This document shows positions 4,781-56,653 of a stretch of 64,000 nt of DNA, piece after piece (positions within the stretch are counted from its first letter, which is position 1; each line of letters begins with the position of its first letter). The notes under the pieces were generated by a model, which had not been told where the DNA came from, did no database searches, and saw only the letters and a program-made list of their open reading frames with translations. This DNA is from Bacteroidales bacterium. Its GTDB lineage: Bacteria > Bacteroidota > Bacteroidia > Bacteroidales > VadinHA17. The position numbers and the translations under genes were made by a program. The stretch lies in assembly GCA_034678415.1 (NCBI GenBank), contig JAXDBV010000045.1, forward strand, positions 1,317-65,316. The letters run 5' to 3'.

Positions 4781-4781
4781 A

Positions 4782-9735: not shown

Positions 9736-9740
9736 GGATA

Positions 9741-30078: not shown

Positions 30079-30116
30079 GATATCATTCTGTACCGGTCAT
30101 ACCGTGAAACTGCGAG

Positions 30117-39596: not shown

Positions 39597-41186
39597 ATGC
39601 CCCTGCTTACCCGGAAATACCACAGGACGATCTTTACGGGCAGCCTGGCGCTGATGACAGCCAGCCTGCCACTATCCGAGTTTATCCTGAGCATAGCGAT
39701 CATCATCTGTACAGTGAACTGGATCGCCGAAGGTCAATACGGGGAGAAATGGCAGCAGCTGAAGACCAGGAAAAGCCTGTGGTTCGTTATGGTTATCTAC
39801 CTGGTGCACCTGGCAGGCATGCTTTATACCAAGGATACAGACTATGGATTACACGACCTGAGGATCAAGCTTCCCCTCCTCATTCTCCCCCTTGTGGTTG
39901 GTACAACCGGCACACTCTCCGGCAAAGAAGCAAAATGTGTCTTCATGTCGTTCATCCTTGGCGTCATCGTTTCCAGCATTGCAGGTTTCGCGGCCCACGC
40001 CGGTCTTATTCCGCAGACTGACGGGCGTGCCTCCATCTTCATTTCCCATATCCGCCTGGCACTCATGGTTAATATGGCTATTGTCCTTTGCCTGAACATG
40101 ACCATCAGCCAGTTTGGAGCAAACAAATGGTTCTCAGGCAGCTTGTATGCCACCGGAATGATATGGCTTGTTTTTTTCATTTTCATTTTAAAATCATTAA
40201 CAGGAATATTAATATTATTGATATTAACATTATTAATATCAATATATTTTTTAATAAAATTAAAGAATGTTATTTTAAAATTTATCCTGGTAACATTCCT
40301 GGCAACCGTTGTACTTTTATCTTTTTCCTTTGTAACCCATTCTATAATAAGGTATTATCGTGTGGCTGAGGTAGACTTGTCGGCACTCGAAACGCACACT
40401 AAGAGGGGCAATCCGTATATTCATGACATGGTGAACCAACAGATAGAGAACGGAAATTATGTATGGCTGTATTTATGTGAAGAAGAGCTGAAGGAAGGAT
40501 GGGAGCAGATGAGCGATGTTCCTTATGACGGGGTGGACGGCAGGGGACAGTACATACGGTACACACTGATCCGCTACCTGACATCAAAGGGATTGAGGAA
40601 GGATGCTGAAGGGTTGGCACAGCTGCAGCCGGAAGATGTGGAGGCTGTTGAATCAGGATTGGCCAATTGCCTGTTCCTTGATCGCTATTCGCTGTATCCG
40701 AAGATGTATGAGGTTATATGGCAGATCGATCAGTTTCGGAAGGGAGGAAATCCCAGCGGCAATTCCGTTACCCAAAGGATCGAATACCTGAAGACGGCGA
40801 TAAATATTTTTCGTAATCATGTATTAATGGGTGTGGGAACAGGGGACGTCAGTAGTGCATTTGATGAACAGTACACGGCGGACAAATCGGGCATTGATCC
40901 GGCATGGCGTCTGCGCGCCCATAACCAGTATATCACATTTCTTCTTACTTTTGGTATCATAGGTTTTTTGCTCATTGCCGGTTCATTCATAATGATAATA
41001 TACCTCGAGAGAAAAAACCTCGATCCCCTGGCTCTGGCATTTCTAGTGATCGCTCTGTTATCCATGATCAACGAAGATACTCTTGAGACACATGCCGGGG
41101 TGAGTTTTATCGCATTTTTCTTCTCAGTCCTCCTTTGGGGGAGAAAAGAAGAAGGCAAACAAAGGAAAAATGGGAACGGTGCATAA
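39597..41186 (+). CDS. O-antigen ligase family (Wzy_C domain) integral membrane protein with a large periplasmic loop
   Basis: 529 aa with about 10-12 TM segments and a soluble loop of about 190 aa (approximately aa 255-445). That loop ends in WRLRAHNQYITFLLTFGIIGFLL, which resembles the Arg/His-containing Wzy_C signature shared by WaaL ligases, Wzy polymerases and PglL-type O-oligosaccharyltransferases. Confidence 0.7.
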   Translation: MPLLTRKYHRTIFTGSLALMTASLPLSEFILSIAIIICTVNWIAEGQYGEKWQQLKTRKSLWFVMVIYLVHLAGMLYTKDTDYGLHDLRIKLPLLILPLVVGTTGTLSGKEAKCVFMSFILGVIVSSIAGFAAHAGLIPQTDGRASIFISHIRLALMVNMAIVLCLNMTISQFGANKWFSGSLYATGMIWLVFFIFILKSLTGILILLILTLLISIYFLIKLKNVILKFILVTFLATVVLLSFSFVTHSIIRYYRVAEVDLSALETHTKRGNPYIHDMVNQQIENGNYVWLYLCEEELKEGWEQMSDVPYDGVDGRGQYIRYTLIRYLTSKGLRKDAEGLAQLQPEDVEAVESGLANCLFLDRYSLYPKMYEVIWQIDQFRKGGNPSGNSVTQRIEYLKTAINIFRNHVLMGVGTGDVSSAFDEQYTADKSGIDPAWRLRAHNQYITFLLTFGIIGFLLIAGSFIMIIYLERKNLDPLALAFLVIALLSMINEDTLETHAGVSFIAFFFSVLLWGRKEEGKQRKNGNGA

Positions 41187-41706
41187 AAGACTTACCCGGG
41201 ATTTTTACTCCAGGGATGTACTCGAAGTGACTCCTGATCTGCTGGGTAAATGGCTTGTCCGCCGGTTTGATGACGGTACGGTCAGAAGATATATCATCAG
41301 CGAAGCGGAGGCATACAGGGGAGGAGAAGATAAGGCATGCCATGCAAGCCGGGGATACACGGAAAGAACCAGGGTGATGTTTGGTGAGGGAGGGCATGTA
41401 TACGTATACCTGATCTACGGGATGTACTGGATGTTTAATATTGTAACCGGTCCAAAGGGTTTGCCGCAGGCATCACTGGTCAGGGCTGTACTGAATATTG
41501 ACGGACCCGGAAAGCTAACCCGTGAACTATGTATCGACCGGTCGTTCTACGGTGAAAACCTTGTTACATCAAAGAGATTGTGGCTGGAAGATAATCCTGT
41601 GAAACCGTCCATCAGAAGCGCACCAAGGATCGGTGTGGATTATGCCGGGGAATACTGGAAAAATATACATTGGAGATATATTATTGAAAGCAATGATCAT
41701 CAATAG
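41170..41706 (+). CDS. mpg: DNA-3-methyladenine glycosylase (Mpg/AAG family)
   Basis: 178 aa. FYSRDVLEVTPDLLGKWLV, EAEAYRGGEDKACHASRG, VYLIYGMYWMFNIV and PRIGVDYAG match the AAG/MPG fold family. Confidence 0.85.
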   Translation: MGTVHKRLTRDFYSRDVLEVTPDLLGKWLVRRFDDGTVRRYIISEAEAYRGGEDKACHASRGYTERTRVMFGEGGHVYVYLIYGMYWMFNIVTGPKGLPQASLVRAVLNIDGPGKLTRELCIDRSFYGENLVTSKRLWLEDNPVKPSIRSAPRIGVDYAGEYWKNIHWRYIIESNDHQ

Positions 41707-42838
41707 CCGTTTATTTATTCTTATCATGTCACTGGGAATGTGGGTCGGTATCAGGACTGGTTACACCCAGCTGGACAACAGCAAATTCTATCTGACGGAT
41801 TCGTTGGAACCGCCGCTGAAGAACAAGGTATTTCTGAATTTCTCAAGCCTGGGATTCTTTAAGAACAATGAATATTTTAATAATATTGCTGACGGCTATA
41901 CCTTGTTTGGATACCATTTTGCGCCTTCCCTGTCGTTTTATCCTTCCGAGCATATTTCATTAAAAGCGGGTTTTTTTGCCTGGCAGGATTTTGGAAACCA
42001 TACCTTCAGTATGTTCCAGCCGTTATTTACCATTCGCCTGGTATACGGGGATATGCTGTTCCAGTTTGGCACCCTTGATCCTCCTGCTTCACACTTGCTG
42101 ATTGAACCCATTTACGATTTTGAGCGGAACCTCACCTCTCCCCTGGAGAACGGAATGCGATTCGTATACGATCATCCCCGGATCCGCTCCGAGGTCTGGA
42201 TCAACTGGGAGGATATGCTGTACCGGGGAGAAGGCTCACAGGAAAAGCTTTCTGCCGGTCTTTCTGCAGTTATCCGTGCCGCAGGTGATGAGGTGATGTG
42301 GATTGATATTCCGGTGCAACTGCTGGTGTGGCATCATGGAGGACAGATCGATGCCTCGCCCCTCCCGATGAAAACAACAGCTAATGGCGCTGCAGGCTTC
42401 TCCGTCGGTTGGATGTATCAGGATAACAGGATATTACGCAAGCTTGGCTTCAGCTGTTACCTGGCAGGATACAAGGATTTTTCAAACACCCTCACGGAAC
42501 CGTTCCGGAACGGTTTCGGAGGCTATGTAAATGGTATGCTTTCCACCAGCATCGTGGATCTCATGTTAAGTTACTGGCATGGTGACCGGTACATCTGCGA
42601 TTACGGTGGTGACCTGTATTCATCGGTTTCTTCAACCTTTAAAAATCCATTGTATTATGAGAAAACCAGGGACCTGATCATCGTGCGTTTTTCCAGGGAT
42701 ATCCGTTTATTCTCCAATTTTTACATTACCGCAAGGGTCGAACCCGTGCTCGATTTTAACGACCCGGCATTTGAATTCTCCCATGGCCTGTATTTCAATT
42801 ACCGTGGAAATTTCCTGATGGGAAAAACAAAGGACTGA
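41693..42838 (+). CDS. Hypothetical secreted protein, probable outer-membrane beta-barrel
   Basis: Signal-like N-terminus MIINSRLFILIMSLGMWVGIRTGYTQ and abundant alternating aromatic/hydrophilic strand-like segments (GYTLFGYHFAPSLSFY, GFSVGWMY, LSYWHGDRY, HGLYFNYRGNF). The start is taken at 41693, a 14-nt overlap with mpg; the track ORF starts at 41633. Confidence 0.5.
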   Translation: MIINSRLFILIMSLGMWVGIRTGYTQLDNSKFYLTDSLEPPLKNKVFLNFSSLGFFKNNEYFNNIADGYTLFGYHFAPSLSFYPSEHISLKAGFFAWQDFGNHTFSMFQPLFTIRLVYGDMLFQFGTLDPPASHLLIEPIYDFERNLTSPLENGMRFVYDHPRIRSEVWINWEDMLYRGEGSQEKLSAGLSAVIRAAGDEVMWIDIPVQLLVWHHGGQIDASPLPMKTTANGAAGFSVGWMYQDNRILRKLGFSCYLAGYKDFSNTLTEPFRNGFGGYVNGMLSTSIVDLMLSYWHGDRYICDYGGDLYSSVSSTFKNPLYYEKTRDLIIVRFSRDIRLFSNFYITARVEPVLDFNDPAFEFSHGLYFNYRGNFLMGKTKD

Positions 42839-42911
42839 ATATGACGGAAGAGTTTTTTAGTGAATAATTGCTTTATTTGTTAGCTTCACCGTTCTTGAAT
42901 TGCTGGTATTT

Positions 42912-45900
42912 ATGAAACGATTTGCTTTATTGAACAATCTGACCGGATGGACAGCCTTCCTGGTGGCGGCAGTTACCTATTTCCTGACCCTTGAGCCAAC
43001 CGTGAGCTTCTGGGATTGCGGGGAGTTTATTGCTGCATCCTATAAGCTGGAAGTGGGACATCCTCCGGGAGCACCCCTGTTTCTTATGCTGGGACGGTTC
43101 TTCTCACTGTTCGCTTCCGATCCTTCACGGGTGGCTGTCATGATCAATTCTTTATCGGCCATCGCCAGTGCTTTTACCATCCTGTTCCTGTTCTGGACCA
43201 TCACCCATATTGCCCGGAAAATCATTATTGGGAATGATGAGGTTACCAGCGGCCGGATCATGGCGGTTCTCGGCGCCGGTCTCACAGGTGCAATGGCTTA
43301 TACCTTCTCAGATACATTCTGGTTTTCAGCGGTGGAAGGGGAAGTTTATGCCCTGTCATCCCTGTTTACTGCCGTTGTGTTCTGGGCAATTCTTAAATGG
43401 GAGGAACACTCCGATGATCCCCAATCAAACAGGTGGATCATCCTGATTGCTTACCTTATGGGCCTTTCCATCGGTGTTCACCTGTTGAACCTGCTTGCCA
43501 TACCGGCCATCGTCATGGTTTATTATTTCAGGAAATACAAACCTTCCACCTGGGGCGTTATTGTTGCCCTGGTTATTGGCTTGCTTATTCTTGGATTCAT
43601 CCAGTGGGGAATGATACCCGGTGTGGTGAAAATGGCCACTTGGTTCGAACTGTTTTTTGTTAATATCCTCGGGTTACCCTTTCATTCCGGCGCCATTATT
43701 TATGTTCTCGGCCTCATCGCTCTGCTTGGCTGGCTGCTGTATCACACTCATTTGAATAACAAGGTGCTGCTGAATACGGTTGTCCTTTGCTTTTCGGTGA
43801 TGTTGATTGGTTATTCATCCTATACCATGATCATCATCAGGTCATCGGCTAATCCGCCGATGGACCAGAACAATCCCGATAATGTATTCGATCTTTTAAA
43901 ATACCTGAACCGTGAGCAATACCAAGCCTCCCCGCTGATCAAGGGTCCGTATTATAATGCCCCGGTTATTGATGTGAAGGACGGGAAGCCGAAATATATC
44001 AGGAGAAACGGTAAATATGTGGTAATCGACAGGGATCCGGTATATAAGTATGATCCGCGGTTTGTCACATTCTTTCCCCGTATGTACAGCAGTACGGAAG
44101 ATCAGCATGTGAGTGACTACATCGAATGGGGAAAGATCAAAGGGGTGAAAATTCCGGTGAGCGGTTCACGCTCTCAGACGGAAATGAGGGTAAAACCGAC
44201 ATTTTCAGAGAACCTCCGTTTCTTTATACGGTACCAATTGGGTCATATGTATTTCAGGTATTTTATGTGGAATTTTGCCGGGAGGCAGAATGATATTCAG
44301 GGCCATGGCAACGTGCTTGATGGGAACTGGATCTGCGGCATTCCGGCCATCGATAATCCACGGTTGGGTCCGCAGGAGAACCTGCCCGACAAATACCTCA
44401 ACAACCGGGGCAGGAACAGGTACTACATGCTGCCTCTGTTGTTAGGACTGGCGGGTCTGTTGTACCTTTTCAGGAAAGGCCGTAATAACTTCTGGGTTAC
44501 TGGCTTGCTCTTTGTCTTCACGGGAATAGCCATTGTGGTTTACCTGAACCAGACTCCTCATCAGCCCCGGGAAAGAGATTATGCATACGCGGCTTCATTT
44601 TACGTGTTCTCTATATGGATAGGCCTGGGAACGCTTTTATTGTATCAATTCTTCAGGAAATATTTCACCGATATCGGGGGAGCACTGACAAGTGCAATCC
44701 TTTGCCTGGCAGTACCTGCTCAAATGGCATCGGAAAACTTGGATGATCACAACCGGTCGGGTCGGTATACGGCCAGGGACTTTGCATACAACTATCTGAA
44801 CTCCTGTGAACAACAGGCTGTGATCTTCACCAACGGGGATAATGATACATTTCCTCTCTGGTACATACAGGAGGTGGAAGGTGAACGAACCGATGTGAGG
44901 GTAACCAACTGCAGTTACCTGGGTGCTGCCTGGTATATCAGCCAGATGAAGATGAAAGCATACGAGTCTGAGCCTCTTCCTTTCTCCCTGAAAGAGGAAC
45001 AGTACGTTCAGGGTTCCAGGGATGTGTTGCTTTTCAATCCGCGGTTTGATGATTATTATGATATAAAGCAGGTGATGGAATTTGTGTCCAGTGATGATCC
45101 CAGGGCGAAAATCAGGTCCCCGTTTGGCAGAAACGAAACGATGAATTACATGCCCACCCGGAAGCTGAGGATACCGGTGGATTTGGCAACCGTTCTGAAT
45201 AACGGGACGCTTGACAAGGAAGATGCTCAAAGGATGCTCAAGCATATAGACTGGGAGATTACCAGGGACGTAATCTACAAGAATGATCTGATGATTATTG
45301 ATCTTATGTCCACCAATGAATGGAAAAGACCTGTCTATTTTGCCATCACTGTCCCCCGTGAGGTATATCTTCAGCTCGATCCTTTCTTTCAGTGTGAAGG
45401 CTTTGCCTACAGGGTTGTGCCGCTGAGGACCGAACCGCGGGAAACGGATATTGGAAGAATTCCTTCCGCCAAACTCTATGACCGGATAATGAATAAGTTC
45501 CGTTGGGGTAATGTGAACGATCAGAAGGTGTACATTGATGAGAATAACCAGCGGATGATCTCCAGTACCAGGAATATTTTTGCACGGCTTGCATTGCAGC
45601 TGGTAGAGGAAGAAAAGAAGGATTCAGCGCTGACGGTACTTGACCGGTGTATGGAACTGTTTCCCGGCGACAGAATCCCCCATAATTTCTTTTCTCTTCA
45701 GCTTATAACGGCTTACTACCGCGCCGGAGATTATGAAAAGGCTGACTCCCTGGCGCGCGTCATCGCCGACGATCATGAAAAACTGGCCCGGTATATTTTT
45801 GCCCTTGACAGGAAACGAATGAGCACTGTGGTGAATGAAGCCCAGCTCGCCATGTATGTTTTTAACCAGGTAGTACATATTACGGGCCAGTATGCAGGGA

Positions 45901-45968
45901 AGGAAGTAAGGGAAGAGATGTACCGGCGTTTCCAGGACCTTATGGCCATATATAACACATTGAGCTGA
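42912..45968 (+). CDS. DUF2723 domain protein (TMEM260 / GT117-like, GT-C-type putative glycosyltransferase) with a large C-terminal periplasmic helical-repeat region
   Basis: The N-terminus (LTGWTAFLVAAVTYFLTLEPTVSFWDCGEFIAASYKLEVGHPPGAPLFLMLGR) is the hallmark DUF2723 start. About 10+ TM segments in the first 620 aa are followed by about 400 aa of soluble sequence. The ATG is at 42912; the track uses TTG at 42900. Confidence 0.8.
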   Translation: MKRFALLNNLTGWTAFLVAAVTYFLTLEPTVSFWDCGEFIAASYKLEVGHPPGAPLFLMLGRFFSLFASDPSRVAVMINSLSAIASAFTILFLFWTITHIARKIIIGNDEVTSGRIMAVLGAGLTGAMAYTFSDTFWFSAVEGEVYALSSLFTAVVFWAILKWEEHSDDPQSNRWIILIAYLMGLSIGVHLLNLLAIPAIVMVYYFRKYKPSTWGVIVALVIGLLILGFIQWGMIPGVVKMATWFELFFVNILGLPFHSGAIIYVLGLIALLGWLLYHTHLNNKVLLNTVVLCFSVMLIGYSSYTMIIIRSSANPPMDQNNPDNVFDLLKYLNREQYQASPLIKGPYYNAPVIDVKDGKPKYIRRNGKYVVIDRDPVYKYDPRFVTFFPRMYSSTEDQHVSDYIEWGKIKGVKIPVSGSRSQTEMRVKPTFSENLRFFIRYQLGHMYFRYFMWNFAGRQNDIQGHGNVLDGNWICGIPAIDNPRLGPQENLPDKYLNNRGRNRYYMLPLLLGLAGLLYLFRKGRNNFWVTGLLFVFTGIAIVVYLNQTPHQPRERDYAYAASFYVFSIWIGLGTLLLYQFFRKYFTDIGGALTSAILCLAVPAQMASENLDDHNRSGRYTARDFAYNYLNSCEQQAVIFTNGDNDTFPLWYIQEVEGERTDVRVTNCSYLGAAWYISQMKMKAYESEPLPFSLKEEQYVQGSRDVLLFNPRFDDYYDIKQVMEFVSSDDPRAKIRSPFGRNETMNYMPTRKLRIPVDLATVLNNGTLDKEDAQRMLKHIDWEITRDVIYKNDLMIIDLMSTNEWKRPVYFAITVPREVYLQLDPFFQCEGFAYRVVPLRTEPRETDIGRIPSAKLYDRIMNKFRWGNVNDQKVYIDENNQRMISSTRNIFARLALQLVEEEKKDSALTVLDRCMELFPGDRIPHNFFSLQLITAYYRAGDYEKADSLARVIADDHEKLARYIFALDRKRMSTVVNEAQLAMYVFNQVVHITGQYAGKEVREEMYRRFQDLMAIYNTLS

Positions 45969-46609
45969 TGCGTTTCTACCAGTCGCCTTCCAGCCCCTTT
46001 CGACAACTTCTCCCTGAACTGGTATGGTGCCTGCCGGGGATGGACAGGAAAATACTTCTCACGTTTGATGACGGTCCTGATCCTGTAAGTACACCAGTCA
46101 TACTGGATATCCTGGCAGAAAAGAATGCCAGTGCGATTTTCTTCTGCCTGGGAAGGAATGTGGAAAGATACCCCCTCTTGTATGATCGGATCGTGTCCGA
46201 AGGTCATACTGCCGGGAATCATACTTATAGCCACCTCGATGGTTGGCGAACCGGCGTTGATGAATATCTCAGAGATGTGGAACAGGCCGGCCGGTTCATC
46301 GTATCAGACTTGTTCCGGCCTCCCTTTGGCAGGATCAGGCCCTCACAAATACGGAGGCTGAAATCGAAGTTCAGAATCATGATGTGGAGTTGGATGTTTC
46401 TTGATTTCAGTGGTGTGGAGAGAACAGGGAACCAAAGGATACCGCACGAAAAATACCTGTACCCGGGTAGTATTCTTGTATTTCATGACTCACAGAAAGC
46501 AGCTCCCATCACCCGTTTTTTATTAAAGGACTTACTGGAACAGATAGACAGATACCATTTAAAGGCAGGATTACCTGTTTGGTCGATACCCCATGAAAAT
46601 TGTTGTTAA
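45968..46609 (+). CDS. Polysaccharide deacetylase family protein (NodB homology domain, CE4)
   Basis: LLTFDDGPDP (the Asp-Asp metal/catalytic motif), GNHTYSH (His-His) and FRPPFG. The start overlaps the upstream stop (TGATG). Confidence 0.8.
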   Translation: MRFYQSPSSPFRQLLPELVWCLPGMDRKILLTFDDGPDPVSTPVILDILAEKNASAIFFCLGRNVERYPLLYDRIVSEGHTAGNHTYSHLDGWRTGVDEYLRDVEQAGRFIVSDLFRPPFGRIRPSQIRRLKSKFRIMMWSWMFLDFSGVERTGNQRIPHEKYLYPGSILVFHDSQKAAPITRFLLKDLLEQIDRYHLKAGLPVWSIPHENCC

Positions 46610-47723
46610 TGCGGTTACAGTGAAATATGGAGGCGGATTAACCGTTTCCCTCAATTTCCTCAGGGCTGCGGCAATTACTCTTGGAGAAGATGAACTGTTC
46701 CTGATCACTGCCCGGGGGACAGGAATGGAGGGTTACACTGTTGGCGGAAACGTAACTGTCGTCCCTGCATGGAAGATGAAATATCTTTTCAGACCCTGGC
46801 TTGACCATGTGTATTTACGGAGAATTATCAGGACGATCAATCCGGATGTCATCATAAGCATGGGTAATCTTCCGTTGCCCGTTAAGGGATGCCAGGTCAT
46901 CCTCTTTGATAATCCCTTCGGTACCCTGAGGTCATTCAATGATTTCCGGCTCACCCACCTTGATAAGCTCAGGCACAGGTTGAGGAATTATTTCTTCGCC
47001 AAACGAATAAAATACCTAAATAGTATCATTTTCCAGACAGAGATTGAGCAGCGTAAATTTCAGGAGAAATATGCCCGGGTGAAGGTCCGGCAGTGGATAA
47101 TACCGAATCCTCCCGGCCTCCTTCCTCAGGCTGTTACCCCTGCTTCCAGCCTGCGAATGAAGAAGGAAGAAGGTGAACGGTTTGTGGTAGCCTTTACGCG
47201 CTACTATCCGCATAAGAACCTCGAAATCCTTCTGCACGTGGCTGAATTGATCAGGGACAGATACCGGATCAAAATATTGCTGACGATACAACCCGGGCAA
47301 CATCCGCACGCTGCAAGAATGTTACGCCTGATCAGGAAGAGAGGGTTAGAGAATGTAATAATAAATACCGGCGAGATTGCTCCGGTCCAGATCAGTCACC
47401 TGTACAGGCTTTCTGATGCCCTCGTGTTGCCTACGCTTCTCGAATCGTTTACCTCCACTTATACCGATGCCATGTTGCATGGTGTCCCTGTTCTGACTTC
47501 CGACCGGGATTTTGCACGGCACATTTGTGGAGACGCGGCATGGTACTTCAATCCGGCGGATCCTCATGATATCCTGAAAACCATTTGCTGCTGCTTTGAA
47601 AACCAGCAAGAGAGGCAAAAGAAGATTGAACGGGGATTGGAGATGATTCGTACAAGATACCCCGACTGGTTTTCATGTGCCCGGCAATTACTTGATCTGG
47701 CATCGATAAATAACCAGGAATGA
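46593..47723 (+). CDS. Glycosyltransferase family 4-like (GT-B)
   Basis: C-terminal LPTLLESFTSTYTDAMLHGVPVLTSD (E-x7-E-like region) and a YPHKNLEILL linker. It overlaps the deacetylase end by 17 nt. Confidence 0.75.
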   Translation: MKIVVNAVTVKYGGGLTVSLNFLRAAAITLGEDELFLITARGTGMEGYTVGGNVTVVPAWKMKYLFRPWLDHVYLRRIIRTINPDVIISMGNLPLPVKGCQVILFDNPFGTLRSFNDFRLTHLDKLRHRLRNYFFAKRIKYLNSIIFQTEIEQRKFQEKYARVKVRQWIIPNPPGLLPQAVTPASSLRMKKEEGERFVVAFTRYYPHKNLEILLHVAELIRDRYRIKILLTIQPGQHPHAARMLRLIRKRGLENVIINTGEIAPVQISHLYRLSDALVLPTLLESFTSTYTDAMLHGVPVLTSDRDFARHICGDAAWYFNPADPHDILKTICCCFENQQERQKKIERGLEMIRTRYPDWFSCARQLLDLASINNQE

Positions 47724-48526
47724 TGGGCATGGTTAGCATTATACTACCGGTATATAACGGAGCTTCATATCTTGAGAATGCCATCGTTTCGGTCTTGAAT
47801 CAAACATACAGGAACTTTGAACTGATCATCATTGATGATGCGTCAACCGACCACAGCCTGCAGATTGTGGAATATTACAGGAGACAGGACACACGGATCC
47901 TGGCGATAAGAAGCAGTATGAGAAGGGGAGTGGCGAAAACCCTGAATATTGGCCTGCGTGCTGCCGGCGGCGATTTCATTGCCAGGATCGATGCGGATGA
48001 CCTGTGGTTGCCTGAAAAACTGGAACAGCAGGTAAGGGTATTCAATTCGGATCCTGAACTGCTCCTGTTAGGAACTGCTAAAATTCTCATCGATCAAAAC
48101 GGGGATGTAATATTCGGAAAAAGCGACTGGCCAGTGTATTCCTATGGTGACATACGGAAAAATATCCTGAAGAAAAACCTCTTTTCCCATTCATCGGTGA
48201 TGTTCAGGAAGTCCGTCCTCACCGTGGCAGGATATTACAATGAGGATTACAAAAATTCGGAGGATTACGAGTACTGGATCAGGATCATTACCCAAGGAAA
48301 AGCAGAGATTATTCGGGAATCGCTGGTACAGTACCGTCTTCATCCCGAGATGATTTCATGGAAGAAAAGACGGCAACAAAAATTATTTGTGATTAAAGCC
48401 AAATGGATGGGGTTCTCACTTCTCGGGTTCAGGCCCGGTTACATGCCATACCTTGCAAGGGATGTATATGAGTGGATGGTACCGGATTTTATGATCAGAC
48501 TGAAGCGGAAACTGATAGGTGTTTGA
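47720..48526 (+). CDS. Glycosyltransferase family 2
   Basis: VSIILPVYNGASYLENAIVSVLNQTYRNFELIIIDDASTD and ARIDADDLW (DxD). It overlaps the upstream stop (ATGA). Confidence 0.85.
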   Translation: MMGMVSIILPVYNGASYLENAIVSVLNQTYRNFELIIIDDASTDHSLQIVEYYRRQDTRILAIRSSMRRGVAKTLNIGLRAAGGDFIARIDADDLWLPEKLEQQVRVFNSDPELLLLGTAKILIDQNGDVIFGKSDWPVYSYGDIRKNILKKNLFSHSSVMFRKSVLTVAGYYNEDYKNSEDYEYWIRIITQGKAEIIRESLVQYRLHPEMISWKKRRQQKLFVIKAKWMGFSLLGFRPGYMPYLARDVYEWMVPDFMIRLKRKLIGV

Positions 48527-48532: not shown

Positions 48533-49450
48533 TTAATATCTGTCCCGCCCGAGAAATATCCTGCCTTTCCAGTATTGTTCAACGAGAAATATTGTCACCG
48601 GATATGAGGTTGTATGCGAAGGTTCATAAAGTAAATATTGCATTAACGCGGAACAGTGTTTTTCAATAAGAACAATTTCTGACTGTTTCAATTTCTTTTT
48701 CCATGCACTCACCGTTGAATGATCCGCAGGGCCGGTAATATCCCTGTGCAATTCAATCTCCGGTGGGGGTAGCCGGTCATAGTAGTTGCCGGTATCATTT
48801 CGTTCCCCAGGTGTGTACCCGATCTGCAGGTGCTGAAGAAGATCATCCACTGTTTTTTCGGGATTTACCACCAGATCCTCAAACCGTACCGTTTCAACCC
48901 TGCAGTAACCGGGATTCCTATGGACGGCCTGATTTGCCAGTTGTTTCCAGGTGTACGCGCAGATAAGAGGATTCTTATTAAAGGCTCTCCCCGTGTAGGG
49001 GTTTACGGTGCATTTCTGTGATGCAAATATTCCCCGAGGATCCCTGATGAGATTTAAAAATATGATCTTGTCAGCATAATCTGAAAGCTGATTCGACAGC
49101 TTGAACAGGGAGGTATGTTTGAACACGATGGTATCAGCCATGGAATTGATTTGGTTCCGGTAAAGGGTGAGCACATGCAACAACATTCCTTCACGGCTTT
49201 TCTGATCCATAGCCTCATTAATGTCATCAGGAGTAAGTTTCCAGTATTTCAACTGCATGTCTTGCCGGATGGCTTTCATCAACCTGTCTTTTATCGACCC
49301 GGTATTTTTCCCGTTGATCAGGATATCAACGAGGCAACCGGCTTCAGGGCATACCGCGAAGGTATTGATTCTGCTGAGATGTTGCAGGAGGAAGCTTGAT
49401 CCTGACCGGTTCATATAAGAAACGAACACAAATTTCATTTGCCGATCCAT
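48533..49450 (-). CDS. Sulfotransferase family protein (RSGS-type PAPS loop)
   Basis: N-terminal FVFVSYMNRSGSSFLLQHL (5'-phosphosulfate-binding loop analogue) and LIRDPRGIFASQ (R-D-P-x-D/G..S 3'-phosphate motif). The start overlaps the upstream stop (TAATG). Its stop is only 6 nt from the convergent GT2 stop. Confidence 0.7.
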   Translation of the reverse strand: MDRQMKFVFVSYMNRSGSSFLLQHLSRINTFAVCPEAGCLVDILINGKNTGSIKDRLMKAIRQDMQLKYWKLTPDDINEAMDQKSREGMLLHVLTLYRNQINSMADTIVFKHTSLFKLSNQLSDYADKIIFLNLIRDPRGIFASQKCTVNPYTGRAFNKNPLICAYTWKQLANQAVHRNPGYCRVETVRFEDLVVNPEKTVDDLLQHLQIGYTPGERNDTGNYYDRLPPPEIELHRDITGPADHSTVSAWKKKLKQSEIVLIEKHCSALMQYLLYEPSHTTSYPVTIFLVEQYWKGRIFLGRDRY

Positions 49451-50349
49451 TACATTGGATATCCATGATCTGCCAGAGGTAATCCGGGAAGCATCCTGCT
49501 AAGCGTTTTATTTGATTCACGGTAATAATCCTCGATAAAACGGAAACTCCTCCACCCAAGAACCTCCCGTGAAGAAGGATGGCTTCCCATGATGGACAGG
49601 CGGTTCAAATTCTGTAAAAGTAAGGTTCTTACCTGGTACCAGCCGGGGATGTGGACGACATAATACTTGAAGGCATATTTTTCCCTGGTGAATATATTCA
49701 TAAACCGGGCCAGGGGAAACAATGCTTTTCTCAGCCTCGGATTCTCAGGCTGGTAGTTGAGTGTATCGAGGTTTATTTTCAGGTCAAAGATGCGGCAGTA
49801 TTCCTTCAGGAATGATGTATTGTCAGCAGCGAATTGTTCGAAAAGGAATACATGGACATGTGCGGCTCCAAACAGGTTCTGATACAGGGCTACCACTTTA
49901 TCGTATTCAAAGAGGATGAAGTCATTGGTAACGTTTTTATACGGTGTTTTCTGTCTGAACAGGTACCGGTCGGGGGAGTGGGTGCCTCCTGCCAGGATAT
50001 GCTGTGAATACCGTGAGGCCATTATATCTGCCTGGTTCCTGATGATTACAACAATATCTGCCTGCGGGAACACAGCATTAATCCTGCGGGCATTCTCGGC
50101 AATTCTTATACCATTGTTTCGCCGGTCAACGAGTATCTCCTCCTCACAAATCAATATGCGTCCGTAACAATGATCAGTAAAATATTCTGAAACGGCAGCC
50201 GGATTGAAACTGAACGCATCTTTCCGGAGAATCTGTCCCAGCACTTCGTCCCTGCCAATAAAACAGGCATCCGTCACCAGCGGATAGAATTTTTTCTGAA
50301 ACCAGGTGGTGGATGTCTTCGGATAACCTATATGGATCAGGGGATTCAT
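49450..50349 (-). CDS. Predicted sulfotransferase, paralog 1 of 3
   Basis: IHIGYPKTSTTWFQ (compare the canonical PKxGTTW PAPS loop), VVIIRNQADIMASRYSQ, IPGWY and YYRESNKTL. It aligns full-length by eye with 50346-51269 and 52169-53089. Confidence 0.65.
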   Translation of the reverse strand: MNPLIHIGYPKTSTTWFQKKFYPLVTDACFIGRDEVLGQILRKDAFSFNPAAVSEYFTDHCYGRILICEEEILVDRRNNGIRIAENARRINAVFPQADIVVIIRNQADIMASRYSQHILAGGTHSPDRYLFRQKTPYKNVTNDFILFEYDKVVALYQNLFGAAHVHVFLFEQFAADNTSFLKEYCRIFDLKINLDTLNYQPENPRLRKALFPLARFMNIFTREKYAFKYYVVHIPGWYQVRTLLLQNLNRLSIMGSHPSSREVLGWRSFRFIEDYYRESNKTLSRMLPGLPLADHGYPM

Positions 50350-51269
50350 GAGTGTAGCGTAATGTAATATCCTTCAAATCCCGGGGGAATATACCCCTCC
50401 TCTGCAAGTCGTACATTGGATGAGGAATAATACCGGGCTATCTGGGCCACCAGTGGTTCACCCAAAAGTTCACAGGAACCGGGTTTTTTCCGGAACAGCT
50501 TGGTGTTATTCAGCTTCTCGGTGACAAGCCGCGTAAAGCCATACCACTTGGGTATGTTAAGAAAATATCTTTTACAGGGGATATTTTTCCTCGTAAAGTG
50601 GTTTGCCCACCTGTGACAGTTCAGTAAATACCTGTTCAGCCGGGCATTTACCTTCCGTGGTGAGTGAACAGAAGAATACAATTCAATACCGAGCCGGTCA
50701 AGAAAATACATTATGAATCGTTCCGAGTACTGTATCAGGTCTTCATAAAGAAATACCGATACGTTTTCCCTGCCGAACAGTTCTTCATACATATGGATGG
50801 TGTGATGAAAGTCAAACAGTTCAAAATTAAATGATCTTTCCTTGAATCGGGCATCGGTAGTAGCAGTACTAAAGTACTGTCGGGGATAATAAGTCCCACC
50901 TGATTTTACATATTCGGAATACAGTGATGCCAGCAGGTCGATCTGGTACCTGATGAAAATGACGATGCGGCTTCCCGGTAACGACTGATGCAGCCTCATA
51001 GCCAGCTGTTGTGCATGCCTTCCTCTGCTTTCCCATTTCACCACATTTCCCAGCAGGTCTTCATGGCTGATGATGACTTTTTCACCGTATTGTTCCGAAA
51101 GGTGATTGACAAATCCCTCAGCATCAAATTCATGGTCATCCGGCCGGATCAGCCCGGTAAGAATCTGATTCCTGGACACCATTTTATATCCTGCGACGAG
51201 CGGGAAAATACAGGTTTGCAACCAGCTGGTACCTGTTTTAGGGTAGCCGATATGAACGATAGCTTTCAT
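50346..51269 (-). CDS. Predicted sulfotransferase, paralog 2 of 3
   Basis: VHIGYPKTGTSWLQ, VIFIRYQIDLLASLYSE, IPKWY and YYSSSNVRL. The start is set at MKAIV (51269), overlapping the GT8-like stop (TAATG); its stop overlaps the next start (ATGA). Confidence 0.65.
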   Translation of the reverse strand: MKAIVHIGYPKTGTSWLQTCIFPLVAGYKMVSRNQILTGLIRPDDHEFDAEGFVNHLSEQYGEKVIISHEDLLGNVVKWESRGRHAQQLAMRLHQSLPGSRIVIFIRYQIDLLASLYSEYVKSGGTYYPRQYFSTATTDARFKERSFNFELFDFHHTIHMYEELFGRENVSVFLYEDLIQYSERFIMYFLDRLGIELYSSVHSPRKVNARLNRYLLNCHRWANHFTRKNIPCKRYFLNIPKWYGFTRLVTEKLNNTKLFRKKPGSCELLGEPLVAQIARYYSSSNVRLAEEGYIPPGFEGYYITLHS

Positions 51270-52141
51270 TATTCTCTCAGTAGTTTGCTCCACCACCGGC
51301 GGCTGGAGAACCAGCCAAATATATCAGGATTCCCATCAAATAATACCGTCAGTGCCTTTCGCATGTGCTTATTTTTTCCCAGGAACCGTGGGTGGTGATA
51401 GTGAACAAGTACCGGAATATCATTCAACTTTTTTCGCAGGTGCAGAGGATAATTATATGTCTCATCCAACAGCCTGTAAGGTATACCGGTTTTCAGTAAG
51501 GCCAGGGAGAGACTTACCTGGTCGAAATGGAAGGCATACTTCCTGTCGCCGTGCATTAAAAGCTCCCTGTACAATGAAATCCAGGTATTTAAAAAATGCC
51601 GCAGCATATGTTTCCTGAAGATCAATACCCCGGAGTTAAAATACGGGGGAGACCATTTACCGTCGTATGTACAGGTAATGCTGTTTTCCGGTTTGTCCAG
51701 GTGAAATCGGGTGCATATCTCCTCCCAGTTCAATCCGATGGTCACATCGGCCGGTTTTGCCCACAGGCTGGTGTTATCCTTTTCCGTGAATGGGAACAGA
51801 ACAGGACGACAGCACAGGATATCGCTGTCAAGAAATACAACGTTCTCCTGCCCGGCAAGCGGTACCAAACAAAACAACTTGTTGCTTACCAAAAGGTTCC
51901 TTTCATAATGGTTGGACTCAATAAGAAGGGGATTGTCAAAATAAACGGGATGAATGCCAAGGTTATTAAAAATGGATACTGCTTCAGCGGATATATTCCA
52001 TGGACGGTTGTTTATTACTGGAACCGCATAGTAAACGGATACCCCTTCCGGAAGATATTTCATTAACGACATTCCAAGAACAAGAGAATAAGATTCAATA
52101 TCCCCCGGGTGTGACACAAATATGAATGAGTAAGCGTTCAT
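51269..52141 (-). CDS. GT8-like nucleotide-diphospho-sugar transferase (GT-A fold)
   Basis: VVFLDSDILCCRP (DxD) and PYFNSGVLIF resemble the glycogenin/LPS-glycosyltransferase (GT8) motifs. 290 aa with no TM segment. Confidence 0.55.
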   Translation of the reverse strand: MNAYSFIFVSHPGDIESYSLVLGMSLMKYLPEGVSVYYAVPVINNRPWNISAEAVSIFNNLGIHPVYFDNPLLIESNHYERNLLVSNKLFCLVPLAGQENVVFLDSDILCCRPVLFPFTEKDNTSLWAKPADVTIGLNWEEICTRFHLDKPENSITCTYDGKWSPPYFNSGVLIFRKHMLRHFLNTWISLYRELLMHGDRKYAFHFDQVSLSLALLKTGIPYRLLDETYNYPLHLRKKLNDIPVLVHYHHPRFLGKNKHMRKALTVLFDGNPDIFGWFSSRRWWSKLLRE

Positions 52142-52168
52142 CGAATGATTCGTTTACATACCCAAATA

Positions 52169-53089
52169 TTACATCGGATAACCCAGCTCTGCAAGTTTTT
52201 CTGAGGGAAGAAGCCTTTGAAGGGACGCATTGGATTCCCGATAAAAGTTCCTGATGTATTCCACATTTTTCACCCCCAGTATATGTGCTGATGACGGATA
52301 CCTGCCGAAAACCTTCCATGCATTCATTCTTTTGTACAGTCTCCTGGTTGTGCTGTACCATCCCGGTATACTGATGCAATAGTATTTATAAAGAGTTCTT
52401 TCGTGCGTGAAAATGTTTAACAGCCTGACCATCCTGAGAAGGCCGGCCCGGTACCGTTTATTTTTGGGACTGAAATCGATGGCTTCCTGAAGTATCTCAA
52501 GATCAAATGTTTCAATGAATGACCGGATAAATTTCTGCGGATTGCTTTGTAGCTTTTCATAGGGAAAAACATGTACGTTTTCTTCTCCAAACAAAGAATG
52601 GTAATAAGTGATCAGTTTGTCAAACTCAAGGTAATGGAATGAAAACAGCAGGCTCTTGTTTGCTTGATGAAACAGGAATTTATTTATTCCATAGGTCCCG
52701 CCGTTCTGTACATAATTGAAATAGGCTGAAGCAATCAGGTCGGTCTGGTTCCGGGTAAAAATGATAATGCGGGCTTCAGGGAACACATCATGTAGCCGCT
52801 GCCCCAACTCTGTTGTCATGACACCGTTATGCCCGCCGAGATTCATGAATCCCAGTAAGTTTTCCTGGCTGATAATTAAGGGCTTCTTATACCTGGTCAG
52901 AAAATAGTTTCTTACCTTTTCCGCATCAAAATGAAAGGCATGAGGACGGATGATCCACTGAAAGATCTCTTCAGTACTCGCAACATCCATGTTTCTCACC
53001 AGAGGAAAGACATTTTCCTGCAACCAGGTGGATGCCGCCTTCGGGAAACCAATATGTATGAATACCTTATTCATGAATGATGTTATCAA
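52169..53089 (-). CDS. Predicted sulfotransferase, paralog 3 of 3 (first gene of the operon)
   Basis: IHIGFPKAASTWLQ, IIIFTRNQTDLIASAYFN, IPGWY and FYRESNASL, with the C-terminus LAELGYPM (compare LADHGYPM in paralog 1). An alternative start is at M6 (53074). Confidence 0.65.
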   Translation of the reverse strand: MITSFMNKVFIHIGFPKAASTWLQENVFPLVRNMDVASTEEIFQWIIRPHAFHFDAEKVRNYFLTRYKKPLIISQENLLGFMNLGGHNGVMTTELGQRLHDVFPEARIIIFTRNQTDLIASAYFNYVQNGGTYGINKFLFHQANKSLLFSFHYLEFDKLITYYHSLFGEENVHVFPYEKLQSNPQKFIRSFIETFDLEILQEAIDFSPKNKRYRAGLLRMVRLLNIFTHERTLYKYYCISIPGWYSTTRRLYKRMNAWKVFGRYPSSAHILGVKNVEYIRNFYRESNASLQRLLPSEKLAELGYPM

Positions 53090-53266
53090 ATTTATCGATA
53101 AAAAAGAGATTTACGTATGAGGATACTTTTTATTTCTGACGGCGGATGATAAGCCGGAGCGTAATTTTTCTTACTTTTACATTCAGTAGACTCAATATAA
53201 ATAAGATAGCAACAAATCCGGACGATTTGCGTAAAATATATTTATACCCAATAAACTTCCCTGATA

Positions 53267-56200: not shown

Positions 56201-56653
56201 TGCGTTTACGTTAGAGCGGAAGGCGGTAATTCACCTTATATTTATACTATATTGCCGGGAGGTACACAGAATACCAGCGGTGATTTCTGTGGCTTAGTGC
56301 CTGGCACCTATACGGTTAGTATTGATGACGCCAACGGATGTGGACCCATTGTTACACGGGGGATAACCGTTCCTGCACCGGAAGATCTTATATTATATGA
56401 TGCAATAACGCCCAACGGCGACCAGGTGAACGACGAATGGAATATTCACGTGATAAACTGCTTCCCCGATGCCATTGTAAGGATATTCAGCTCATGGGGT
56501 ACCCGAGTATTTGAATCGGAAGCCGGATACCCTGTTCCGTGGAATGGAAAATTCAATGGGAAAGATCTGCCGGCCGGAACGTATTATTATGTTATTGATC
56601 TTAACGGAGACGGATCCGTTCAAATGAAGGGTACCGTAAATATTATTAAGTAA
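53267..56653 (+). CDS. Large T9SS-secreted cell-surface protein: signal peptide, SBBP-like beta-propeller region, 7 SprB-type repeats, type B C-terminal sorting domain
   Basis: Signal peptide MKNAKILFLAFLATLAGTL. The N-terminal approximately 470 aa carry recurring G-N-hydrophobic-Y/F-hydrophobic-T/A-G-x-F blades (DDGNIYITGGF, GDCNIYYTGSFF, AYHNFFATGTF). The last approximately 88 aa (ITPNGDQVNDEWNI...WNGKFNGKDLPAGTYYYVIDL) form the gliding-motility/type B CTD. Confidence 0.85.
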   Translation: MKNAKILFLAFLATLAGTLRSLPQDCWECLSQISSTANMAANAGAFSELDNNGNLYIFSDYTGPITIRSRTIPYGGNTDIVLMKMNAETCDTLWIRVVNGVNKEAARDMKLDDDGNIYITGGFTVSANFNGTVITSPDGTEDIFLAKYNPEGNLIFARNVGYGAGIQRSSAMIVDEQDSIAMLGIYNTQITFSTGKSFTGDAAFDNFFAKFSITDGNHGSIKNWNGTDGATRLNSIDVACTDGYYIGGTFYGTLTPPCNSDVTSTNQGDILLSKVDKDGCVVPGWIYTYGSTGPVNYHDVLSSLSSDGDCNIYYTGSFFRTLNMDGSIIQADGGNQDIYVAKKNAAGTLQWVKRFGSGSWDEGLCISTNDAIIGVGGFFRGDLVWGRDTVTSEEPADDDSFVGIITPDGKPFAIYNPHGRLSRTLDVAIDAYHNFFATGTFRGTKIDFGCDMSLTKTPPRADNLRDLWIARHGPVISLEFLVDSITCYGGNDGAIDMTVIGNLEPYTYLWEIVSGGCGIANPNAEDLSGLCAGIYKITVGYSGGLKTDTVLVPGPPQFIIDSAKVTQQVTQCYGDCSGEIRVYARGGTGTLKYTLQPGNIVNTTGIFSNLCADTYTVTVSDYHNCSLTSQELTVIQPPSLVLLLDIKTDITCYGLNNGRIEMNGSGGTGPLQFTLNPGNVTNDDGIFTGLAPGSYTICLTDANTCGPVCVGPIDILEPDSLQIVSVTQTHLLCHGGANGEICVTAQGGKGTLSYTLTPGNITNTTGCFTGLVAGTYCVTVDDANSCGPVDTCDIVLLQPEMVSFTKTQTDATCFDVCDGSITVSATGGNGEYEYSRDGGSTWQISNVFSDLCDNSYTIRVKDSYGCLSPDSVVQITQPSMVSFTYEKTDISCAGEHDASVTITASGGNGTYLYSINCGSSWQDLPVFPGLAPGTYCLLVKDWRECHSDPVNMEIVAPEPLTIADIDSTGITCEGQVNGCVYVRAEGGNSPYIYTILPGGTQNTSGDFCGLVPGTYTVSIDDANGCGPIVTRGITVPAPEDLILYDAITPNGDQVNDEWNIHVINCFPDAIVRIFSSWGTRVFESEAGYPVPWNGKFNGKDLPAGTYYYVIDLNGDGSVQMKGTVNIIK
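54692..56389 (+). repeat. Seven tandem approximately 81-aa (about 243-nt) Cys-containing SprB-type repeats inside the cargo gene
   Basis: Each unit has the pattern x-(T/Q)-x-x-x-C-(Y/H/F/A/E)-G-x-x-(N/D/C)-G-x-(I/V)-x-(V/M)...GG-x-G-x-(L/Y)-x-(Y/F)...G-x-(F)-x-x-L-x-x-G-x-Y-x-(V/I)-x-(V/L)-x-D-x-x-x-C. Examples are ITCYGGNDGAIDMTV, ITCYGLNNGRIEMNG, LLCHGGANGEICVTA, ATCFDVCDGSITVSA. The repeats are diverged at the DNA level. Confidence 0.7.

Follow-up and report, generated by a model that had tools for sequence, protein, structure and literature searches.

The window analysed here, 64,000 nucleotides (nt) of contig JAXDBV010000045.1 from a Bacteroidales bacterium (VadinHA17), to whose full length all coordinates refer, carries between 39.6 and 53.1 kb a tightly packed string of twelve genes, among them those for a WaaL-family (Wzy_C) membrane protein, a TMEM260-like GT-C glycosyltransferase (DUF2723, GT117), a CE4 deacetylase, further glycosyltransferases (GTs) and four sulfotransferases. 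The original prediction attributed this string to one pathway for a sulfated periplasmic or outer-membrane glycoconjugate; the genes do form one physical unit, but the single pathway is made less likely by the division of the region into a backbone and an island, by a DNA repair gene in its midst and by the predicted cytoplasmic location of the island enzymes. With a confidence that is only a little better than even, we read the region as a composite rather than as one dedicated pathway: a conserved envelope and housekeeping backbone with a lineage-specific island set into it. The first part, which extends over 39.6-46.6 kb and resumes at 57.7 kb, has the appearance of a core-genome block of Bacteroidota; the second, at 46.6-57.6 kb, appears as a lineage-specific insertion between the CE4 gene and purD, which probably builds a sulfated sugar chain beside the gene of a secreted adhesin. 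The only broadly and tightly linked genes are those of the GT117-CE4 pair, whose linkage is strong within a large clade and not universal.

The genes of both parts are the following (aa, amino acids; TM, transmembrane; T9SS, type IX secretion system).

39597-41186, plus strand: WaaL-family (Wzy_C) membrane protein, a backbone gene; 529 aa; Pfam PF04932, 51.7 bits against a cut-off of 31.7
41170-41706, plus strand: DNA-3-methyladenine glycosylase (Mpg), a housekeeping passenger; 178 aa; Pfam Pur_DNA_glyco, 171 bits
41693-42838, plus strand: LpxZ-family outer-membrane beta-barrel with signal peptide; 381 aa; precomputed PF28590 Lipid_A_deac match
42912-45968, plus strand: TMEM260-like GT-C glycosyltransferase (DUF2723/GT117); 1018 aa; Pfam PF11028
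45968-46609, plus strand: NodB/PgdA-type CE4 de-N-acetylase, predicted cytoplasmic; 213 aa; Pfam PF01522 Polysacc_deac_1, 79.4 bits
46593-47723, plus strand: GT4 glycosyltransferase, first gene of the island; Pfam Glycos_transf_1, 70.5 bits
47720-48526, plus strand: soluble GT2, EpsE/TuaG-like; Pfam Glycos_transf_2, 118.8 bits; no TM segment
48533-49450, minus strand: sulfotransferase ST1, of Sulfotransfer_3 type; Pfam, 44.4 bits
49450-50349, minus strand: sulfotransferase ST2; Pfam match; paralogue of ST3, 30% identical
50346-51296, minus strand: sulfotransferase ST3; just below the curated Pfam cut-off; 30-36% identical to its two paralogues
51269-52141, minus strand: weakly GT8-like GT-A glycosyltransferase with a DSD motif; Pfam Glyco_transf_8 at E 0.002, below cut-off
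52169-53089, minus strand: sulfotransferase ST4; Pfam match; 36-37% identical to ST2 and ST3
53267-56653, plus strand: SprB-repeat cell-surface protein with a T9SS type B C-terminal domain (CTD); Pfam SprB, 149.6 bits, and CHU_C, 73.8 bits; TIGR04131
56666-57556, plus strand: PorP/SprF, outer-membrane partner of the type B adhesin; Pfam PorP_SprF, 243.7 bits
57677-59959, plus strand: purD (at 57677; Pfam GARS domains) and a 10-TM protein (from 58964), with which the backbone resumes

Conserved backbone and lineage-specific island

The seven plus-strand genes with their overlaps and gaps, as originally described, are borne out by the coordinates of the open reading frames (ORFs) and by independent gene calls on two identical metagenome contigs; these give the same starts throughout, except for the GT2 gene, whose start lies 9 nt further downstream, turning its overlap into a short gap. 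By coordinate arithmetic, the junctions are in order a 17-nt overlap, a 14-nt overlap, a 73-nt gap, a 1-nt TGATG overlap, a 17-nt overlap, and a 4-nt ATGA overlap; the barrel and DUF2723 ORFs start with ATG, their open frames reaching back to a GTG at 41633 and a TTG at 42900, respectively. The convergent junction holds as well, with 6 nt between the stop of the GT2 gene (48526) and that of the minus-strand unit (48533), which comprises five genes (48533-53089). Pfam upholds all the family calls made at the time (Wzy_C, TMEM260-like/DUF2723, CE4, GT4, GT2, sulfotransferases) and likewise the lack of Wzx, Wza or Wzc between 39.6 and 53.1 kb. Two genes had been left unnamed in the title of the prediction, the GT8-like GT-A gene of the minus-strand unit and the second gene of the plus strand; the latter encodes Mpg (NCBIfam TIGR00567, 162.8 bits against a cut-off of 116), a DNA repair enzyme without a role in glycan synthesis, so that not all seven plus-strand genes can be engaged in glycan work.

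Tight packing of genes is by itself commonplace in bacteria, and it is therefore for comparative genomics to decide which of the adjacencies exceed chance. Packing alone defines no pathway: in this string, overlapping start and stop codons connect functions as different as DNA repair, lipid A remodelling and GT-C glycosyl transfer with one another and with an accessory island. Signals of transcription do not stand out from the background either. Between 39.3 and 53.4 kb there are 34 sigma-70 promoter-like sites, against 26 +/- 5.6 in shuffled sequence, and 13 terminator-like sites, against 13.5, neither above expectation; the Bacteroidetes -7 motif TAnnTTTG occurs 38 times in the window, with 39 copies expected. 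Three of these copies, two before the Wzy_C gene (39445 and 39477) and one before the sulfotransferase genes (53087), could belong to promoters, but prove nothing.

For the comparison, every window gene was mapped onto 80 loci around DUF2723 homologues (46-59% identity) from species-representative genomes; the comparison set comprises about 170 related loci in all (numbered with the prefix L), of which those from metagenome bins are not phylogenetically independent. The recurrent order is tsf-rpsB-rpsI-rplM, followed by (Wzy_C) Mpg (barrel) DUF2723 CE4 purD and the 10-TM protein, and then by orf301 (at 60424 in the window) and an ABC transporter. Thirteen GTDB loci have DUF2723, CE4, purD and the 10-TM protein in this order, with purD after a short insert in three (L048, L073, L078) and directly following CE4 in the other ten, whose flanks on both sides match those of the window (e.g. 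L055, L067, L069). Since the window keeps both backbone flanks, its CE4-purD interval can be delimited to about 11 kb, containing the GT4 and GT2 genes, the five minus-strand genes, the SprB-repeat protein and PorP/SprF. Most relatives have the DUF2723-CE4 genes without any GT or sulfotransferase gene. The Wzy_C, Mpg, barrel, DUF2723 and CE4 genes, which had been tied to the sulfated-glycan genes, are thus seen as a core-genome block that mostly runs straight into purD; Mpg and purD, conserved neighbours of unrelated function, mark the entire block as inherited synteny. The 10-TM protein (58964-59959, about 331 aa; L168:3125-4117) follows purD in at least 14 loci and belongs to the conserved block; it has no match in the local copy of Pfam, and weak precomputed DUF6427 matches are found for it in L168, L169 and L171.

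Where the CE4/purD junction is occupied in other lineages, the cargo varies:

L048, L073, L078: DUF6051 and a LytTR regulator
L010: a lasso-peptide-like gene set with one sulfotransferase
L039, L065: acyltransferase, amine oxidase and M43 peptidase
L025: three GT4 genes and a sulfotransferase

The set in L010 (13671-18611) encodes NTP_transf_5, asparagine-synthase-like and HPr-kinase-like proteins besides the sulfotransferase, and resembles the tailoring clusters of lasso peptides, which are ribosomally synthesised and post-translationally modified.

A GT/sulfotransferase island occupies the same site in six other contigs (L083, L084/85 and L025 variants; L168, L169, L171), in each case downstream of DUF2723-CE4, and the GT genes and the convergent sulfotransferases can in this respect stand as the one physical unit they were proposed to be. 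The proposed co-occurrence of DUF2723 with sulfotransferases is thus recurrent, but limited, as most relatives lack the island. In the two closest DUF2723 relatives (73% and 61% identity) the order is CE4-GT4-GT4-sulfotransferase-sulfotransferase, followed by three DUF6625 genes and an SprB/CHU_C protein; in L168, L169 and L171 it is DUF2723-CE4-GT4-GT2-GT2, converging on three sulfotransferases, followed by the SprB-repeat protein, purD and the 10-TM protein. Identities between the window and these last three loci are 46% for GT2, 35-41% for the sulfotransferases and about 30% for the adhesin, values not far from those of the backbone (about 43% for CE4 and 54-57% for DUF2723). The island edges carry no tRNA or integrase gene, and GC content, overall and at third codon positions (GC3), is just slightly lower than in the surroundings; this fits an island that has long resided at the site in one clade and has diversified slowly there.

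The GT117-CE4 pair and the genes upstream of it

The DUF2723 protein matches PF11028 (TMEM260-like) with 273.8 bits against a cut-off of 24.2, over profile positions 1-177 of 179, and the solved structure of human TMEM260 (PDB 9rql) at E 1e-13. In the phmmer alignment, D35 and H50 correspond to D52 and H67 of the TMEM260 donor site, in the first extracytoplasmic loop, and D643, within the sequence NGDNDTFP, corresponds to D441 in an ungapped segment that is weak when taken alone (i-Evalue 0.45); the regions of TMEM260 R264, Y267 and R355, which contact the donor phosphate and the sugar, are left unaligned. D35, H50 and D643 are invariant in 20 homologues of 54-73% identity. In TMEM260, D441 is the catalytic base, located in a Rossmann-like luminal domain, and D52 and H67 are donor-site residues (bioRxiv 10.64898/2026.03.17.711096). 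The AlphaFold2 (AF2) model of the window protein (pLDDT 76.6, pTM 0.72) has as its top Foldseek matches in the PDB PglB (E 1.9e-4), then Pmt4, AglB, ALG12/ALG9 and AftA, with TM-scores that are low (0.25-0.48) because the protein is multidomain. The expected GT-C enzyme is thereby confirmed by profile, structure match and fold, and the catalytic residues to be checked for are retained. The expectation of en-bloc or processive transfer fares differently: homology suggests that a peptide receives one sugar from a polyprenyl-phosphate donor. Human TMEM260 is a protein O-mannosyltransferase for IPT domains, to which it transfers a single mannose (PMC10214176; bioRxiv 10.64898/2026.03.17.711096), and the retention of its donor residues and base in the GT117 protein predicts a single-sugar reaction of the same kind rather than en-bloc transfer.

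The human and the bacterial protein have in common PF11028, the GT-C fold, the donor Asp/His and the catalytic base (CAZy GT117; PMC10214176; bioRxiv 10.64898/2026.03.17.711096), as well as a helical-repeat C-terminal region. They differ in length, TMEM260 having 707 aa and the window protein 1018 aa, with an extra beta-rich insert (precomputed DUF8416) and more TM helices; moreover, the window enzyme is bacterial, periplasmic and paired with a CE4 protein, for which the human system has no counterpart. The IPT-type sequon P-x5-P-x3-G-P-x2-G/A-G-G-x2-T/S, in strict and relaxed form, has no match in the neighbouring SprB-repeat protein. A literature search yielded no article on a bacterial DUF2723/TMEM260 homologue and none connecting either name with Bacteroidota, and it appears that no bacterial member of TMEM260/GT117 has been characterised so far.

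The CE4 protein matches a PgdA-type PDB structure at E 6e-26. Its motifs TFDDGP (D34, D35), H85/H89, R117-P118 and H173-D174 are invariant in 24 orthologues and provide the Asp-His-His metal triad and the catalytic Asp/His motifs of the family; neither a signal peptide nor a TM segment is predicted. A VimE-type assignment was rejected, as the score on TIGR03006 is 42 bits against a cut-off of 276. The CE4 gene lies directly downstream of DUF2723 in 42 of the 46 assessable loci of the window's DUF2723 clade, versus 2 of 30 in the paralogous clade, and the two genes are separated by a median of 6 nt (n=47 junctions, 31 of them at 10 nt or less, overlaps counted). The pair is kept even where all other neighbours differ and rplM, Mpg and purD are gone (e.g. 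L044, L051, L068, L082), and cultured genera such as Sunxiuqinia, Saccharicrinis and Paludibacter possess it (L004, L034, L035/L037). CE4 had been taken for a partner of the GT and sulfotransferase genes; its partner by linkage is DUF2723 instead.

Some genomes have two DUF2723 paralogues, one per clade (L032 and L060, from the same metagenome-assembled genome; L052:5822-12707); in Anaerophaga thermohalophila (L052) these stand in tandem, and CE4 follows the second only. In L088 (804-5661), about 1.2 kb without a long ORF separate DUF2723 from CE4; a tblastn match to the LpxZ-like barrel in this spacer possibly marks a decayed or relocated barrel gene.

A GT-C gene beside a CE4-type gene also recalls known systems for the modification of lipid A with an amino sugar carried on undecaprenyl phosphate, namely ArnT/ArnD/ArnC in enterobacteria and LgmB/LgmC/LgmA in Bordetella. 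The logic is alike, in that a cytoplasmic CE4-type deformylase or deacetylase unmasks an amine before flipping; the window GT-C enzyme is, however, a GT117 and not a GT83 protein, with a periplasmic domain that resembles a peptide-binding O-mannosyltransferase rather than ArnT, and none of a GT83 ArnT, a TM-bearing ArnC/GtrB GT2 or a small flippase was found at the locus to make up a three-component set.

Of the genes upstream, the first encodes a protein with nine predicted TM segments and a loop of about 190 residues (at about residues 250-440). The WaaL signature is H-[NSQ]-x9-G-x2-[GTY]; the protein has the corresponding motif H-N-x9-G-x2-G as 'AHNQYITFLLTFGIIG', with H442, N443, G453 and G456 invariant in 4 orthologues. 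No relative was detected among solved structures. With WaaL ligases (e.g. CHU_2177 of Cytophaga hutchinsonii, PMC11611037) it shares the Wzy_C domain, the many TM helices, the large periplasmic loop and the His motif; the family also takes in Wzy polymerases and PglL-type O-oligosaccharyltransferases, which sequence alone cannot separate, and the linkage of the window gene to the island is not conserved. The gene adjoins DUF2723 in 9 of about 60 assessable loci and lies next to rplM in a subset of relatives; its supposed linkage to the GT and sulfotransferase genes is contradicted by L168 and L025, where the island is present without an adjacent Wzy_C gene. Mpg, the second gene, is upstream of DUF2723 in 15 loci.

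The third gene encodes the predicted beta-barrel, which the AF2 model (pLDDT 78) presents as a genuine outer-membrane barrel of 16-18 strands (about 18), with porins as best Foldseek matches (E about 1e-9). Its N-terminal hydrophobic segment agrees with a signal peptide, and it matches PF28590, a model missing from the local copy of Pfam, in which the barrel went unmatched. On NCBIfam LpxZ_fam (NF052651) it scores 170.1 bits (E 6e-50), below the equivalog cut-off of 460, and by these scores it is an LpxZ homologue that cannot be assigned as an LpxZ equivalog. PagL and LpxR, which are lipid A deacylases, form barrels of 8 and 12 strands, respectively; the model of the window protein is porin-sized, with roughly 18. 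LpxZ is the name given to PGN_1123, a lipid A deacylase gene of Porphyromonas gingivalis (PMC11784228), with whose product the window barrel is homologous, both having PF28590, a signal peptide and an outer-membrane barrel (PMC11784228). The barrel in the same position of L168 is 32% identical and scores 253 bits on LpxZ_fam.

Co-occurrence of the barrel with DUF2723, which the original prediction had put forward as a check, breaks down in many relatives, where the barrel gene is on the opposite strand, and in Cytophagales, where it adjoins recA; a role as functional partner of DUF2723 was rejected on these grounds (opposite strand in most relatives; next to recA in Pontibacter and Fulvivirga). 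In a comparison of the window with L168 (18487-19635), L005, L006 and L010, the plus-strand orientation of the barrel gene was confined to the closest relatives of the window; in L168, L169 and L171 the gene is on the opposite strand. The window barrel is 41-43% identical to proteins of Cytophagales (Pontibacter, Fulvivirga), but shares only 28-33% identity with its opposite-strand positional counterparts in loci where DUF2723 is 54-57% identical. This suggests that the gene at this fixed position was either replaced, or inverted with rapid divergence.

Island enzymes and the adjacent adhesin

The first island gene, of family GT4, has no homologue at E<1e-3 among the GT4 genes in the same position of L083, L084, L025, L168, L169 and L171. 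The GT2 of the window shares 46% identity with its counterparts in L168, L169 and L171, which are likewise terminal and convergent; it lacks TM helices, and an ArnC/GtrB-type assignment was therefore rejected. The GT8-like gene has no counterpart in the related islands. The sulfotransferases, of which three of four pass the curated Pfam cut-off, belong to two families: ST2, ST3 and ST4 are paralogues (30-37% identity), and ST1, without similarity to them, is 27-29% identical to sulfotransferases of L083 and L084. The ST2 family is rare, with 24 proteins at E<=1e-10 among 5.8 billion clusters, and of the four contexts examined for ST2 homologues three are the window's own site and architecture (L168, L169, L171). 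Against solved structures the sulfotransferases have no significant match that would tell their substrate class: they reach at best E 0.002, with an uncharacterised sulfotransferase, and their matches to tyrosylprotein sulfotransferase are non-significant. The listed TTG start of ST4 (53089) overlaps the Bacteroidetes-type -7 motif TAAATTTG (53087-53094, minus strand), and translation more probably begins with the ATG at 53074.

Neither a signal peptide nor a TM segment is predicted for any GT or sulfotransferase of the island. The enzymes are thus predicted to be cytoplasmic and, being so, could not elaborate a sugar installed in the periplasm by the DUF2723 protein. The sulfotransferase family uses 3'-phosphoadenosine 5'-phosphosulfate (PAPS), which is assumed also for the island enzymes.

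Variable surface-glycan loci held in place by conserved flanks are familiar from the O-antigen cluster of E. coli between galF and gnd. As there, the window has GTs and modifying enzymes at a fixed site, with genes that are partly non-orthologous between relatives; in contrast, its island is without Wzx, Wzy, Wzz, an initiating transferase and nucleotide-sugar genes, and has four sulfotransferases and a T9SS adhesin gene. None of the genes that define Wzx/Wzy-dependent O-antigen or capsule synthesis (Wzx, an initiating phosphoglycosyltransferase, Wzy/Wzz or Wza/Wzc) lies within 39.6-53.1 kb; a Wzx gene is present 37 kb away (1209-2726). It belongs to a separate polysaccharide locus on the minus strand (1209-12099), which further comprises a methyltransferase, two epimerase/dehydratase genes, a nucleotidyltransferase, GT4 genes and a UDP-GlcNAc 2-epimerase, and which could supply a flippase to the sulfotransferase island.

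At the right-hand end of the island, an SprB-repeat gene is found in this position in L010, L025, L039, L065, L083, L084, L168, L169 and L171 as well as in the window. The N-terminal third of the window adhesin matches the SBBP beta-propeller lipoprotein family. The secretion and anchoring class, as judged from the C-terminal domains, is swapped between positional counterparts: the window protein has a type B CTD (CHU_C) with PorP/SprF alongside, and those of L168 (5506-8904), L169 and L171 have a type A CTD (Por_Secre_tail) and no PorP/SprF. Type A proteins are anchored to anionic lipopolysaccharide (A-LPS) in P. gingivalis (PMC7468200, PMC11611037), and type B proteins are thought to be anchored via PorP-like proteins and not via LPS (PMC11611037); in Cytophaga hutchinsonii, most CTD proteins need the O-antigen ligase for anchoring (PMC11611037).

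The Wbp/Vim system for A-LPS in P. gingivalis (PMC7468200) resembles the window in having a cytoplasmic CE4 protein (VimE) beside a GT4 protein (VimF). There, the anionic glycan is tied to the attachment of T9SS cargo, with a WaaL ligase required (PMC7468200); in the window, the CE4 protein is NodB/PgdA-like and the charge would come from sulfate, not from phosphate or uronic acid. Those parts of the window that were scanned contain neither VimA nor Wbp genes.

Proposed mechanism and competing readings

From gene identities, conserved residues, synteny and the lack of export signals, all of them observed, we infer the substrates, donor and acceptor of the composite as follows. The CE4 protein would de-N-acetylate a sugar precursor at the cytoplasmic face of the membrane, most plausibly polyprenyl-phosphate-HexNAc (N-acetylhexosamine); after flipping, the GT-C enzyme would attach the resulting monosaccharide to a hydroxyl group, on an extended peptide or on another periplasmic envelope acceptor, using D35/H50 as donor site and D643 as base. 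In the island, the three GTs and the four sulfotransferases, all soluble, would build on a lipid carrier a short oligosaccharide with several sulfate groups; assembly is placed in the cytoplasm because nucleotide sugars and PAPS are available there. Export and attachment of this glycan would proceed via genes outside the island, such as a Wzx elsewhere and a WaaL-type ligase or O-oligosaccharyltransferase, and the most consistently linked candidate beneficiary would be the SprB-repeat T9SS adhesin at the right end of the island.

Several observations weigh against the composite as drawn here. Operon structure is deduced solely from spacing; the GT, sulfotransferase and DUF2723-CE4 genes lie together in seven genomes, in the window with a 17-nt overlap between CE4 and GT4, and a single functional unit would look alike. 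In the reciprocal test, DUF2723 was upstream in only 19 of 67 assessable metagenome loci with a CE4 relative, and the unlinked CE4 genes form clades of their own, adjoining TatD or gltX; the GT117-CE4 pairing is for these reasons best described as clade-restricted and could be inherited synteny. The two DUF2723 clades themselves come from a neighbour-joining tree that is midpoint-rooted and carries no support values. Finally, no polyprenyl-phosphate glycosyltransferase of GtrB/ArnC type and no small flippase is found nearby, which leaves the donor pathway incomplete.

The contiguity of DUF2723-CE4, GT and sulfotransferase genes, in the window and six other contigs, also speaks for a competing reading, in which all twelve genes of 39.6-53.1 kb make one deacetylated, sulfated periplasmic or outer-membrane glycoconjugate, with the DUF2723 protein, the Wzy_C protein or both as final transferase. 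The CE4/GT4 overlap agrees with it, and so do the PglB-type oligosaccharyltransferases among the best structural matches of the GT-C model. We nevertheless judge it improbable: most relatives have DUF2723-CE4 without GT or sulfotransferase genes, Mpg is unrelated to glycans, L168 and L025 have the island without a Wzy_C neighbour, the strand of the barrel gene is reversed in L168, L169 and L171, and the GT4 genes in the same position are non-orthologous between genomes. One pathway is possible only if the DUF2723 protein transfers the finished glycan en bloc, and TMEM260, its closest relative in sequence and the closest that is characterised, transfers a single mannose. At the opposite extreme, and unlikely as well, the CE4/purD junction may be simply a permissive insertion site, such that the product of the GTs and sulfotransferases (e.g. 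a sulfated glycolipid, or part of another polysaccharide) is unrelated to the flanks and the packing against CE4 is meaningless. At least four unrelated kinds of cargo occupy this junction across lineages, the island has neither Wzx, Wzy nor an initiating transferase, and a separate Wzx-type polysaccharide locus exists at 1.2-12.1 kb; against this, GT2 and the sulfotransferases have kept their place in genomes that have diverged to DUF2723 identities of only 54-57%, and the ST2 homologues, rare as they are, return to it in 3 of 4 contexts examined.

A role in decorating or anchoring the adhesin is a serious rival or complement to the composite, and in its pure form, at about the same level of doubt, would have the sulfated anionic glycan attached to the SprB-repeat T9SS protein or serving as its anchor, with DUF2723-CE4 as a mere left-hand neighbour. 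Wherever the cargo consists of GTs and sulfotransferases, in seven genomes, the island terminates in such a gene; the type A CTD in L168, L169 and L171 is of the class linked to an LPS glycan (PMC11611037, PMC7468200), most CTD proteins of Cytophaga hutchinsonii require an O-antigen ligase in order to be anchored (PMC11611037), and the window adhesin has 9 motifs of the form D(S/T)(A/I/L/V/M/T). The density of these motifs does not, however, exceed that of a further secreted protein encoded in the window; SprB-repeat genes occur at the same site with non-glycan cargo (L010, L039, L065); the window adhesin is of type B with its own PorP/SprF, the class thought to be anchored via PorP-like proteins; and there is no VimA-like gene, nor is the CE4 protein of VimE type (TIGR03006, 42 vs 276 bits). 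More far-reaching still, GT117 and its coupled cytoplasmic CE4 might constitute a new periplasmic protein O-glycosyltransferase system of Bacteroidota, even the oligosaccharyltransferase, or one of several, of the phylum-wide O-glycosylation, that loads the sulfated island glycan onto the SprB-type adhesin; this we hold to be very unlikely.

Under the composite reading every protein family of the region is known, and what is found is a variable surface-glycan island beside a so far uncharacterised bacterial GT117 module. The conserved, translationally coupled GT117-CE4 genes, with the known catalytic residues intact, offer a well-defined starting point, of just two genes, in the search for a new periplasmic glycosylation reaction. 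The matter is topical because the O-oligosaccharyltransferase of Bacteroidota is still unidentified according to a July 2026 preprint, which proposes YfhO, a protein absent from P. gingivalis. The island, for its part, represents a recurrent grouping of multiple sulfotransferases, GTs and a T9SS adhesin at one chromosomal site; a literature search found no paper that combines sulfotransferases, type IX secretion and glycosyltransferases. Sulfated surface glycans would bear on adhesion, on resistance to phages and predators, and on the sulfur cycle of marine or sediment habitats.

Elsewhere in the window, an Rfam scan of 30-64 kb returned a single tRNA and nothing else, the tRNA-Leu(CAA) at 30116-30200, and two paralogues of aminopeptidase P (M24), at 20780-22189 and 25713-27008, flank the genes for fumarate reductase/succinate dehydrogenase.

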